DNA of 62,586 nt, filler included, from Globobulimina sp. (taxonomy: Eukaryota): NCBI GenBank assembly GCA_003354225.1. It is 39 parts of 39 records of this genome, joined end to end, with 100 filler letters (N's around TTAATTAATTAA, not from the genome) between each part and the next. Parts side by side here need not be neighbours in the genome. Positions count along the whole stretch, not along the records: positions 53,051 to 54,556 come from PIVH01015593.1; 38 more parts are not named here. The stretch is one strand, 5' to 3'. The position numbers were made by a program, and so were the translations under genes. The notes below the pieces were generated by a model. The model made no database searches, had not been told where the DNA came from, and saw only the letters and a list, made by a program, of their open reading frames with translations. Below, piece after piece: positions 19,199 to 55,577 of the stretch. Position 1 is the stretch's first letter, and each line of letters opens with the position of its first letter.

Positions 19199-19425
19199 NN
19201 NNNNNNNNNNNNNNNNNNNNNNNNNNNNNNNNNNNNNNNNNNTTAATTAATTAANNNNNNNNNNNNNNNNNNNNNNNNNNNNNNNNNNNNNNNNNNNNAT
19301 GAGGTCCGATGGTATTGATAATGACAAAATCACCACTTACAGAAACAGACATAGTTATAATATTATATGTGTGTTGAAAAATATCTTTTCAATCACTCAC
19401 AAAACAAATTATAATAATACTCACA

Positions 19426-20806
19426 GTGCATGTAATCTATGATAGATTCGATTCCATAAACACCGGATTACTGCCAAAGAATGCTGTCCACGTTGGAAAT
19501 GGTATTAAAATGCAACGACTGAACTGGATTCCATTGCATGTTAAGACCATAAAAAATTCCATATGGCAACATATTGACCGTACAAAGATAGAATATGACC
19601 ATCAACACTTTGAGAAACATTTTCAAACAACACAAAGACCACAAGTTACGCTTACAATCTCTGCAGAAGCAGGCATTCGTAGTTACAATTTGCACGATTT
19701 AGAGCTTGATCATAAAGAAAATTGTAACAGATCTTTTGTATCAAACAAACGAAGAACTGACGTTACGATTGGACTAAGAAAATTAAATTTAAGTATCAAA
19801 CAAATACGTGATGCATTGCATAATATGGACGAACGGATACTGACAACAGAAAGGTTAGATTTATTGTTATCAATTATACCAACAATGGATGAACAATTCC
19901 AAGCGAAAAATATGTTCTCCGCTCAATTCACTGAGTATGGAACAGTTGAACAATTATTTTTTGCTCTTTGTGACTTTGTGGACTTTCGGCAAAGATTAAA
20001 ATTATGGATATTTAAGCAGAATGCTTATGAAATGTATCGAGTGATAGTGGATCAATATAAAATAATCGGAAAAGCATCTGATAAAGTTAGGCATTCTCGG
20101 AAATTGAAATTATTGCTGACAATTATATTAATGCTTGGTAATCATATGAACAGTGGGTCAGATGCAGCGGGCATATATGGGTTTGAGTTGGCTGCGTTAA
20201 CTAAATTGAAAGAGGTACGATCACCATTAAATAAACAATCTTTGTTAACGTATATTTATCGATTTTGTGATGAAAGATACCCGAATGTGTTAAATGTGAT
20301 TGATGGATCCGGATTATATCCGTACGTTAAACGAGCAGCGATGTTGGATAGACCAGCTTTGAGACGATTATGTGATTCGTTTTTGCAATGTATGGAAGAG
20401 GTAAAATGTTTGATCGGTTTGGATGATGATGAAAGATATAATATTGATGATAGATTTATTGCTGTAATGACACAATTTTATCAAACTGCATGGTGTTGGA
20501 CAAGAAGACTTAATATGACTATGCGATATGGGATGGTTTGCATTAAACGCGTACTCAAAAAATATCTGTTTACTGGATCAAATGCATTGTTTTTCAAAAT
20601 ATGGTATGTGTTTTTGAATGATTTAAAAGTTGCCAAACGAAGATTGGTTGATTTGGAAGAAGAGAAATATAAAAATGGTTCAAACTATAAAACAGAATTG
20701 CATGCAAGCAGTGGAATTTTAAAAGCTTTGGAGCAAAGATGGAGATTTCGGAAACATGATACGTTTTTAAAACAACATATTGCAAATTATCCAGGTGTTA
20801 CTATTG
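19426..20806 (+). CDS. Formin FH2 domain protein, partial
   Basis: KMQRLNWIPL..SIW, RRTDVTIGLRKL, ILMLGNHMNSG...IYGFELAALTKLKEVRS...SLLTYI. Confidence 0.9.
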
Positions 20807-51444: not shown

Positions 51445-52769
51445 TTCTGAAGGGCTATCTGCGGAAACTTCAGCCAAAGGACAGCAACAACAAGATAGCA
51501 GCCGAAATATTAGAAACGTGCGGATTATATTGTTTCTCATTGGATGAGTTTAAGGAGTTAAGATCGTCCGGTTTGAGGAAACAAATTAAACAAAATAAAA
51601 TCCTGCAGAAGTTCTCAAAAAAAACGTGTATAATCGGAGCAGATAACACCACCATTCATTACACCTCGAAACACAAACAATACATTATTGGCACACGAAA
51701 TATTTCCGCATCGTCGGGTGTACATTTTTGGAAATTCGCATTAAATGCAAACAACTCGAAATGTGCAGTTGCAGTCAGTTTGATGTACAACAAACATTCA
51801 AATGCGATCGGAGTGGGACCACGTCTCACAATCAGCGAATTGCCACAATTGGATGACGTCCCGCTATGTATTGAAATGTATTTTAATTCGAGTAGTTCCA
51901 CACTCATATACTCAGTGAATGAGATCCGCCAAAAACCAATAAAAGTCGAACAAGTCAGACATAGCAAATATAGAATGTTTGTCTCACTGAATGGCGTTGC
52001 TAAGAATTCAATTATCAATGTACAGCTAATTAGTTATCAATCGTCAGAAATATGTTTCCGTGTTCTGAACAACAAAAAGAATGAGTATGATCCTGATGAA
52101 GTGGCCAAAGTGTGTATGGATTATGCGGAGTTAAGTTACAATTTGCAAACAAAACTGACATATACAAAAAAAGCATTAGCTTTTTATCCGAAACACGATT
52201 TATGGAATTCAATGTACATTGCATTGTTGATGAAATTGCAAAGTTATCAGCAAGCATATAAGTATGTGGTTGGTTGCGGTGAAGGTCAGTTAGGAATCGC
52301 TAATTTGGCCGCACATTTTGAAGAGGAAAAGGACTTTAAGAAAGCCAGCGAATTATATGAGTTATTGGACAGTTCTACGATGAATGAAGGATGCAGTTGT
52401 TTGATAGTCGGAATGTGTAAACAAAAGAATGGCGAATATAAGAAAGCATTGAAACTGTTTTATCAACAAATGGATCACAGAAATGAAGATTCCAATGCTT
52501 ATAAAACAGTTTGCCAAACACATATTGGTTGTGTTCATTATGAATTGCTGGATTTTGTGTTTTGTTTAAAAGCATTGATGCATTTGGAGGATGAACAGTC
52601 ATTTCTATATTTTACACAACAACTTACTGATAATCATGATAAGAAAGTTGATTTTTGTATTTTTTTAGATAAAGCCAGATGTTTTAATGCTGCACAGTTT
52701 GAGATGAATCAACATAGTTACAACACCAAAATGGAAATGCTTATTAATGCAATGTGTGAAGTTGTGTGA
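51445..52769 (+). CDS. SPRY-like + TPR-like repeat protein, 5'-partial
   Basis: IIGTRNISASSGVHFWKF (SPRY start); helical repeats FKKASELYE, YKKALKLFY. Confidence 0.6.
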
Positions 52770-53050: not shown

Positions 53051-54221
53051 TACATAATAAAATCGATCTCTTTATAACTGCTGGAACTAGTTTTAATGTT
53101 TGAAACCAATCTAAATCTGCCACGCCATTCCTTAATGAATAAATGTACGCCGAATAAATGCCAAATCTATACCATAACACATAAATATTATTGACAATAA
53201 AACGTATAAACAACCACATAATACCAAATATAACCAATCCCATCACACTTAATAAAATCACAGATTGCAAACTAAAATTTGCGTGTAATATTTTCGGACT
53301 TTCTAAGCAATGCGACCAAATAACGCGGTGTGAACTGAAGTCACTGCCCCCAGGCCTTTTTGATATAACATAATAAATACGATAATAAAAATGGACTTGT
53401 TCTGGTGCTAAACCGCTAGCTGTCCATAGCACTGGTACTGCTTTCCTGGAATGTCTGGCTCCCATTCTAACTTTCAAATACTCCAACAATGCATAATCGT
53501 ACTTCACAGATACGGGTTTTAACTCCCTTACTTCAGAGAGGAAGCACCCTTGAATATAAACCCAAGAGTGAGTTATAAGCCATAGTAATGCAGCAAAAAA
53601 TATAATGTCTATGATATATACACCCAAATAATGACACGGAAATATACTAAACACTTCGACACGGAAAAAGGCACCAAAATAATAATAAAAATACCAATCA
53701 TAATCAATGTTCAACACTACCAGTTCAGGATAATAACCACGAATAAAATGCGGTCCTCTAAAACTAAAACAGACCATAAAATGCTGTTTACAATGTCGAC
53801 CGATGCTAAAAAGCTCATAGATCAATGACCATAATAAAGCGTCAAAGATATACTCTTGGCGAACGAACAAAAAATCTATCGGTTGTTGAAAATAACCGCC
53901 TAACGAGTTCCCCATATCGGTTGGTCCAAACCAATGCACGTTATATCCATAAAGGACTAATATTATTATATAAAAATAGCACAAGATTATAGTGCTGGTT
54001 TGTTTAATCTCTCTAAACCTCGTAAAGAGGTATTTGGATTTTTTGGAATCCACTGAAATGTTGATAAATGTGAATGTGCAGTTTAATGTTGATAAAAATG
54101 ACCAATAAAGTAATAATATAACAGAGCGAGGCCAGGGCAATGCATAATAAGCACCTCCTGCAATGCATGCTCCCGTTACAAATAAATAAACACAAAAAGT
54201 AAACTCTGTCATTGAAAGCAT
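53051..54221 (-). CDS. Hydrophobic multi-pass ORFan; complete 408 aa when the contig is circularised (continues 54437->54382)
   Basis: Intronless F/Y/I/L/W-rich ORF; reads through the terminal overlap to end ...ILLCSESYGLFPVRWWRYDIFG*. Confidence 0.7.
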
Positions 54222-54556
54222 GAAGAGTGAAAGGGAAAGTTTTTTAATGATAAAACATCAAAAAAACTTTTAACACAAAAACGAAACACACCGACAACAC
54301 AATAAAACAAAACACATCAAACAATGGGCACAAACTAAACATAAATCACGTCAATAAACTAGATTTTAATCCAAGCACCAATTAACCAAAAATATCATAC
54401 CGCCACCAACGTACTGGAAACAATCCATATGATTCACTACATAATAAAATCGATCTCTTTATAACTGCTGGAACTAGTTTTAATGTTTGAAACCAATCTA
54501 AATCTGCCACGCCATTCCTTAATGAATAAATGTACGCCGAATAAATGCCAAATCTA
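53051..54556. repeat. Exact 119-bp terminal direct repeat: circular or tandem unit of 1387 bp
   Basis: 53051-53169 is identical to 54438-54556, flush with both contig ends. Confidence 0.95.
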
Positions 54557-54884: not shown

Positions 54885-55577
54885 ATGGGAAACAACTGTA
54901 ATTTAGGATGCCTTGTAGGCGCTAGATATCCATCTCGAAATAATATTAAAACAGTGATGCTCGGTACAAGTGATGTAGGCAAAACGAGTATTTTATATAC
55001 ATTAAAATTGGGAGAATTAATAGATAGTAAATCAACAATTGGATTTAATGTAGAAACAATTGATTATAAAAATACAAGTTTAGCAGTTTGGGATATCGGA
55101 GGCAGAGCAGATTTAATACCTATTTGGAAGTATTATTATCCAAATTGTCAATTTATTATTTGGGTTACCGATCTGTCAAAAATTTATAAAATTCCTAATA
55201 TGAATAAGTGTAAACATCTCATCAATGGATATGTAAACCAATTACAATATGCCTTAAATATTCCAAAACGTGTTCTAAATATTGTTATGAAATATGTGTT
55301 TGTGGACCATGGCTATGTTAAAGAAAAACAATTATTGCAGGATACATTGAGGAATGAGGACTTGGCAAGTTGTCCATTGCTGGTTTATGGCAACAAAAAA
55401 GATGTTGCAGATAATATCTCTGAAAATGATATCATTCATAATTTAGGATTGAACACCATCTCAAATCGGGAATGGCATGTTCAAAAATGTTGTTGTGTCA
55501 CAGGAGATGGATTGTACGAAGGACTTGATTTGTTATTGCAACATTGCCCGAAGCAACATTGTCCGAGAATATGTTGA
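54885..55577 (+). CDS. Arf/Arl-family small GTPase with an insertion of about 40 aa
   Basis: MGN start; GTSDVGKTS, STIGFNVET, WDIGGR, NKKD, TGDGLYEGL. Confidence 0.9.
   Translation: MGNNCNLGCLVGARYPSRNNIKTVMLGTSDVGKTSILYTLKLGELIDSKSTIGFNVETIDYKNTSLAVWDIGGRADLIPIWKYYYPNCQFIIWVTDLSKIYKIPNMNKCKHLINGYVNQLQYALNIPKRVLNIVMKYVFVDHGYVKEKQLLQDTLRNEDLASCPLLVYGNKKDVADNISENDIIHNLGLNTISNREWHVQKCCCVTGDGLYEGLDLLLQHCPKQHCPRIC

Follow-up and report, generated by a model that had tools for sequence, protein, structure and literature searches.

A short contig of the foraminifer Globobulimina sp. (GenBank assembly GCA_003354225.1, record PIVH01015593.1) that closes on itself raises the question of whether its single gene sits on a free DNA circle or is repeated head to tail on a chromosome. 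The window, by which we mean the whole 62,586-base stretch of DNA that was analyzed, is not one locus. It consists of 39 contigs of 1506-1509 nt each, sorted by size and separated by N/TTAATTAATTAA spacers, and the finding described here concerns exactly one of them, at positions 53051-54556 (1,506 nt). The original prediction had proposed either a one-gene minicircle, possibly organellar, or a collapsed tandem gene array. The head-to-tail adjacency on which this proposal was based is real, so that one of the two, minicircle or collapsed array, holds, but the organellar version of the minicircle was not supported by the analysis of genetic code, GC content, RSCU, four-fold skew and protein families. 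We consider a collapsed nuclear tandem gene array to be likelier than a free DNA minicircle, with a probability that we place slightly above even.

Closure of the contig into a 1,387-nt unit

The first and last 119 nt of the contig are identical, as originally reported: the left copy (53051-53169), which encodes approximately residues 351-390 on the minus strand, equals the right copy (54438-54556). Among the 39 contigs of the window, this one alone has ends that overlap directly by at least 12 nt, and no 16-mer is common to it and the other 38. Removal of one copy of the overlap leaves a unit of 1,387 nt, and 119 nt would be the terminal overlap of a cycle in a de Bruijn graph, whose length equals the largest k used or is shorter by one. 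The numbers initially given for the closure were all correct: 1,227 coding nt and a 160-nt noncoding region add up to 1,387, and the minus-strand ORF crosses the junction to a TAA stop codon.

The interior of the contig, read on the minus strand, contains residues 351-408, the stop codon, 160 nt, an ATG and residues 1-390. From 54556 down to 54100, the C-terminus, the stop, the 160 nt and the ATG thus follow each other as the end of one gene copy and the start of the next. Contigs of two runs, X1 and X2, the latter having a different organism label and coming from a different study, were placed on the unit at 80% likeness. One contig of X1 (record 1, 763 nt, k=31) matches 53051-53578 and 54203-54437 with 0 differences and "goes back 1387", thereby running from the stop through the spacer into the start codon. 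This record was probably built from the same reads as the contig and is thus a second assembly and not a second sample. Since it joins stop, spacer and start with 0 differences, there is at least one true copy-to-copy junction. Furthermore, the alignment of the relative P0001 (see below) continues through the residues coded at the other end of the contig, which indicates that the continuation of the ORF reflects genuine gene continuity. The 1,387-base unit really does join head to tail. A joint in record 2 of X1 ("goes back 1296") was considered as a second head-to-tail junction and rejected; in it, the C-terminal coding part of a paralogue is contiguous with its own stop and the first part of its own spacer.

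The ORF and its predicted product

The ORF comprises 408 codons plus the stop (1,227 nt) and is located on the minus strand. It begins with the ATG at 54221-54219 and runs down to 53051 (residues 1-390, 53051-54221); after closure of the contig, it resumes at 54437 and encodes residues 391-408, followed by the TAA stop at 54384-54382 (54382-54437). The corresponding stop-to-stop frame has 420 codons, compared with a mean of 83 and a maximum of 152 for the longest open frame in 300 shuffles of the unit, so that the ORF is not due to chance. Five hydrophobic stretches were identified (residues 1-28, 34-53, 71-98, 188-225 and 311-350), two of which are long enough for two helices each. AlphaFold2 returned all-helical models of low confidence (pLDDT of 45.1 for the single sequence and 40.4 for a 3-row alignment), and the VIA wide fold search with the single-sequence model reached a best Z of 6.8, for generic helical hairpins, with no match at a Z of at least 8, and is thus uninformative about the fold. 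The 408-aa product is probably a polytopic membrane protein of a family restricted to foraminifera.

This protein could not be linked to a known family. Pfam contained no significant match, the best being YmiC with an E of 0.064, which is below the cut-off of that family; NCBIfam gave no match to the 408-aa product, PDB sequences gave nothing below an E of 1.3, and the ESM Atlas gave no usable match. An MBOAT-like motif that we believed to recognize at around residues 288-300 was dropped, as there was no Pfam MBOAT match even at E <= 10. The initial statement that no Rep, RT or capsid motif could be recognized agrees with Pfam, NCBIfam, plasmid and phage searches, in which none of these families was found.

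When 1.84 billion representatives were scanned exhaustively with HMMER, only two relatives were identified, P0001 (E 1.6e-54) and P0002 (E 1.5e-05), which correspond to EukProt UN03606 and UN09362. Both are named Globobulimina turgida, a benthic foraminifer, and form part of a transcriptome set. P0001 matches residues 253-389 at 76% identity and has in common with the C-terminus of the ORF the motif PVRWWRYD-x-FG and the same C-terminal end, and P0002 matches residues 2-33 at 87% identity. Both are members of the protein family of the ORF product but are fragments of 155 and 87 aa, respectively, without annotation or genomic context. The term ORFan used in the original prediction was nearly right, except that these two partial relatives exist in one foraminiferal transcriptome. 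In P0002, the frame extends upstream of the shared start by 57 open codons, a region in which the window is interrupted by stops. The idea that these 57 residues correspond to the C-terminal end of another copy followed by a translated spacer, which would demonstrate head-to-tail order in Globobulimina RNA, was not supported: the local alignment score in the matching frame was reached by 55 of 500 shuffles, so that the similarity to the spacer of the window is not significant. A word-based protein search added no relative: none of 1,934 candidates of similar length scored, and of 212 shorter ones only P0001 did so. Neither metagenome scans, conducted with the protein and with a degenerate pattern of the most conserved N-terminal block, nor searches of viral contigs, plasmids and phages revealed a relative. 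The EukProt G. turgida set presumably derives from poly-A-selected material, namely, the Globobulimina libraries that were made with oligo(dT) or poly-A beads. The preparation of these libraries is described in an excerpt of the corresponding article (PMC6783311).

Composition, genetic code and spacer

The coding strand of the unit contains 561 T, 351 A, 282 G and 193 C. These counts agree with the T/G skew noted initially, but the skew disappears at the 140 four-fold degenerate sites of the ORF (T-A skew of -0.02, G-C skew of 0.00), and the organellar look disappears with it. The T/G richness therefore stems from the content in L, F, I, Y, V and W and not from a replicon-type mutational bias. 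All 14 Trp codons are TGG and none is TGA, as claimed, and the doubt then expressed about a TGA=Trp code was well founded, since the ORF uses the standard code. The GC content of the contig is 0.34, compared with 0.28-0.45 for the other contigs of the window, and the GC3 of the ORF is 0.32, compared with 0.19-0.65 for its neighbours. Its RSCU correlates with that of 6,559 pooled codons from 16 neighbour ORFs with an r of 0.83, which equals the median of the neighbours themselves (0.83), whereas the other two, wrong frames reach 0.60 and 0.65. The genes of the neighbouring contigs are of ordinary eukaryotic kinds (Arf, ankyrin, dynein stalk, FH2 and SNF2). No match to cox, cob, nad, atp or photosystem families was found in Pfam (E <= 10), PDB sequences or the 1.84 billion representatives. 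The gene has a nuclear rather than an organellar appearance and looks foraminiferal, in view of the G. turgida names of its two relatives and of the Bolivina and Nonionella hits of the formin on a neighbouring contig (see below); the simplest reading is that it belongs to the same foraminiferal nuclear-type genome as its neighbours.

The spacer that separates the stop of each copy from the ATG of the following one (54222-54381, minus strand, 160 nt) is T/G-rich, as had been stated, with 84 T, 31 G, 28 A and 17 C. It includes an A/T-rich hairpin of 14 paired positions (54236-54270, minus strand) that ends 15 nt upstream of the ATG. Folded as DNA, the spacer reaches -10 kcal/mol (z of -2.7), and 2 of 200 shuffles fold as well; a general repeat scan found no inverted repeats. 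The spacer would have to hold both 3'-end and 5'-start signals. A scan for bacterial promoters and terminators, which is not relevant to a eukaryote, gave counts that were not above those of shuffles. Rfam contained no matching ribozyme or RNA family, and the only sub-threshold match was a Histone3 3' stem-loop at 54031-54077 (+), antisense within the ORF (19.8 bits, with the gathering score at 34 and an E of 0.023), which is most likely due to chance.

Evidence for a diverged multi-copy family

Fifty contigs of X1 were placed on the unit, of which 13 had an identity of at least 99%, 6 of 95-99%, 16 of 90-95% and 15 of less than 90%. The corresponding numbers for the 22 contigs placed from X2 were 1, 2, 9 and 10. 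The placed contigs concentrate on two coding blocks, 53459-53560 and 53918-54223; for most of the spacer, coverage comes from X1 alone, and X2 covers nothing at 53051-53305 or 54275-54556. Taken together, the contigs of X1 and X2 indicate that two organisms possess numerous paralogues whose conserved blocks are located within the ORF, and the many contigs that are 80-99% alike point to a diverged multi-copy family. Two other runs of the sample of X1 contributed little: one 31-nt piece came from X3 and none from X4, which does not prove that the unit is missing from them. The X1 contigs that match exactly have word depths of 5.1-14.9, which are contig depths and not copy numbers and lack a single-copy reference.

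Of the 31 sites among the rows listed at which the unit differs from its paralogues, 13 are first, 9 are second and 9 are third positions of a codon, a weak count that was made by hand on the 40 listed rows minus 9 indel-ridden rows at 53337-53356. Several of the paralogue alignments also contain gaps of 1-2 nt. The lack of an excess at third (synonymous) positions and these small gaps suggest that some members may be pseudogenes, or that the alignments are poor.

A collapsed tandem array as the preferred explanation

According to the explanation that we prefer, a nuclear foraminiferal gene for a lineage-restricted polytopic membrane protein of 408 aa would be repeated head to tail in a tandem array, with units of 1,387 bp that are identical or almost so and that consist of the ORF and the 160-nt spacer. 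The copies would be located on a chromosome, and the spacer would provide both transcript-end and promoter signals. A de Bruijn assembler would have merged the identical units into one cycle and printed an overlap of length k at both ends. Tandem amplification and concerted evolution may keep neighbouring copies identical and raise dosage, and the protein itself may be an integral membrane component belonging to a diversifying, foraminifer-specific family.

Collapsed tandem arrays of protein genes are known, such as the histone or trypanosomatid arrays. The present unit is like them in that a complete gene and a short spacer follow each other head to tail, neighbours are identical, and the cycle has a k-length overlap. 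It differs from them in that the gene is not a member of any known family, the spacer has only 160 nt, no flank is seen and diverged paralogues exist beside the identical copies. The observations that support the array are the head-to-tail adjacency, the nuclear-type codon usage, the lack of any replication or mobility gene in the Pfam, NCBIfam, plasmid and phage searches, the existence of a paralogous family and the transcripts in a relative, which presumably come from poly-A-based libraries. Foraminiferal DNA is tandem-repeat-rich: an excerpt on Astrammina reports repeats of >100 bp in 184 (6.7%) of the eukaryotic contigs (PMC3079666).

Other observations argue against an array. The cycle closed without a branch into unique DNA, no chromosomal flank was seen and, among the matches listed for the X1/X2 placement, no loose end was found at the junction. 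In addition, a spacer of 160 nt would be very short for a terminator/poly-A site and a promoter in a large-genome organism. A perfectly closed cycle would need several identical copies, or else a circle, and a cycle at the level of sequence is equally produced by an array. If the array is real, the closed contig is an ordinary assembly signature. Even so, the gene would represent a previously undescribed, expressed, multi-copy membrane-protein family that has so far been seen only in foraminiferal data, and foraminiferal genomes have barely been explored.

Circular DNA and other alternatives

A possible but clearly less probable alternative is that the 1,387-bp unit is one member of the family in the form of extrachromosomal circular DNA, that is, a minicircle or eccDNA that is nuclear or of unspecified compartment. 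Such a circle could be maintained as such, or it could be excised by recombination from a tandem array, with both forms coexisting. EccDNA commonly arises from tandem repeats, and tandem arrays shed unit-length circles, which implies that array and circle forms may coexist. In favour of a circle, the cycle closed without a flank in two assemblies at different k, the contig is the only one of its kind among the 39, and the unit is approximately mRNA-sized, with only 160 nt of non-coding DNA that hold the A/T hairpin. This hairpin is also the only candidate structure for a replication function. Against a circle, the searches revealed neither a replication gene nor a recognizable origin, codon usage and GC content are indistinguishable from those of the chromosomal-type neighbours, the spacer is not common to any other contig of the window, and cycles of such a size in short-read assemblies are usually due to repeat collapse. 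The unit resembles eccDNA or small polydisperse circular DNA in having the size of one repeat unit, no replication gene and a chromosomal-type composition. However, small polydisperse circles are usually heterogeneous by-products and not a defined genetic element, and the present unit forms a cycle at the level of sequence only. In summary of these comparisons, the closest parallel to the unit is a collapsed tandem gene array or eccDNA derived from such an array.

Foraminifera are described, in an excerpt of the source, as undergoing extensive endoreplication and chromatin extrusion (PMC11606643), a setting in which excised circles would be plausible. It is doubtful, though conceivable, that some family members reside on one-gene circles of ~1.4 kb, with a control region of 160 nt, that are replicated by the host and perhaps made or amplified in endoreplication cycles. 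Gene-sized circles of foraminifera would then be the circular counterpart of the nanochromosomes of ciliates. If the circular reading were true, Rhizaria would gain their first reported gene-sized element of a circular, chromosome-like kind, and it would bear on how foraminifera handle gene dosage during endoreplication. As judged by title and the start of the abstract, none of the literature matches listed describes foraminiferal minicircles.

We consider it unlikely that the closure arose from a minimal duplication or a mis-closure, in which two adjacent copies, or paralogues with an identical 119-mer, lost their flanks or had them pruned, so that the word cycle would overstate the repeat. 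The conserved blocks of the paralogues do invite graph tangles, and the exact-match X1 contigs are broken at these blocks, as illustrated by records 1, 4 and 6 with 763, 451 and 112 nt, respectively. Nevertheless, no branch interrupts the assembly of the full 1,506 nt at a k of ~119, record 1 of X1 crosses stop, spacer and start with 0 differences, and two copies with flanks should break the contig at the points of entry and exit.

An organellar origin, in which the unit would be a mitochondrial one-gene minichromosome with a very diverged respiratory-chain subunit, is highly improbable. The small unit, its single hydrophobic protein rich in F, Y, I and W and the T-rich coding strand are the features that speak for it. 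Organellar one-gene minicircles are well known, with plastid minicircles of 2-3 kb in dinoflagellates and mitochondrial cox minicircles of ~1.6-1.7 kb in dicyemids, and like the present unit they combine one membrane-protein gene with one non-coding region in a unit of 1-3 kb. Unlike them, the unit has no canonical organelle gene and uses the standard code with nuclear-type codon usage, and it shares no non-coding core with the 38 other contigs of the window. The resemblance is thus one of size only, as the testable defining features of these minicircles were not found. The 14 TGG and 0 TGA codons, the mid-range GC content of 0.34, the nuclear-type RSCU, the missing four-fold skew and the lack of a match to the cox, cob, nad or atp families also argue against an organelle, and many diverged paralogues are not expected of an organellar gene. 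According to excerpts of a study on foraminiferal mitochondria, their genomes are circular-mapping molecules of 46-50 kb with 14 known protein genes, whose ORFs were checked with table 4 and which have a much lower GC content and a far higher coverage than nuclear contigs (PMC10127745), a description that differs from the present unit in size, code and GC content.

The kinetoplast offers another comparison. The unit falls into the size class of kinetoplast minicircles (~1-1.4 kb) and, like them, belongs to a heterogeneous family with conserved blocks. Kinetoplast minicircles encode guide RNAs, have no long ORF and carry a 12-nt universal minicircle sequence, whereas the present unit has an ORF of 408 codons with the conserved blocks inside it. 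With up to 2 mismatches, the 12-nt sequence had 0 matches in the contig, and all 5 matches in the window were elsewhere.

The least probable alternative, to which we attach next to no weight, is a circular RNA replicon or viroid-like element caught in the data: transcripts are the only known form of the relatives, X2 is tentatively taken to be RNA and the type of run X1 is not recorded, but the absence of an Rfam ribozyme match, of a polymerase and of an Oblin-like protein, the host-type codon usage, and unequal counts, on the plus strand, of A and T (561 against 351) and of C and G (282 against 193), which should exclude a rod-like self-complementary genome, set the unit apart from viroid-like and Obelisk-like RNAs.

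Neighbouring contigs

Several observations were made on the other contigs of the window. The 17 stop-to-stop frames of at least 300 codons that are listed for it include many that span a whole contig, and these contig-long open frames imply that the data are either very intron-poor coding DNA or transcript-like. One neighbour ORF has an RSCU that correlates with the pool with an r of only 0.01. The contig at 30555-32061 is an outlier, with a GC content of 0.446, an open frame of 502 codons, a GC3 of 0.65 and a third-position T-A skew of 0.39; its frame had no Pfam match at 1e-5, and it may come from another organism. The contig that precedes the closed one carries a 409-aa ORF (51540-52769, +) without a Pfam family at E <= 0.001, an unannotated protein of foraminiferal type. 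The contig that follows it encodes a complete Arf-family GTPase of 230 aa (54885-55577, +), which was matched in two stretches (Arf, E 3.5e-44) and appears to have an insertion relative to the 174-position profile. Finally, a fragment of an FH2 formin is encoded at 19378-20805 (+); its best hits, with 42-43% identity, are from Bolivina argentea, and Nonionella stella is found in the same cluster, so that its nearest relatives are from rotaliid foraminifera.
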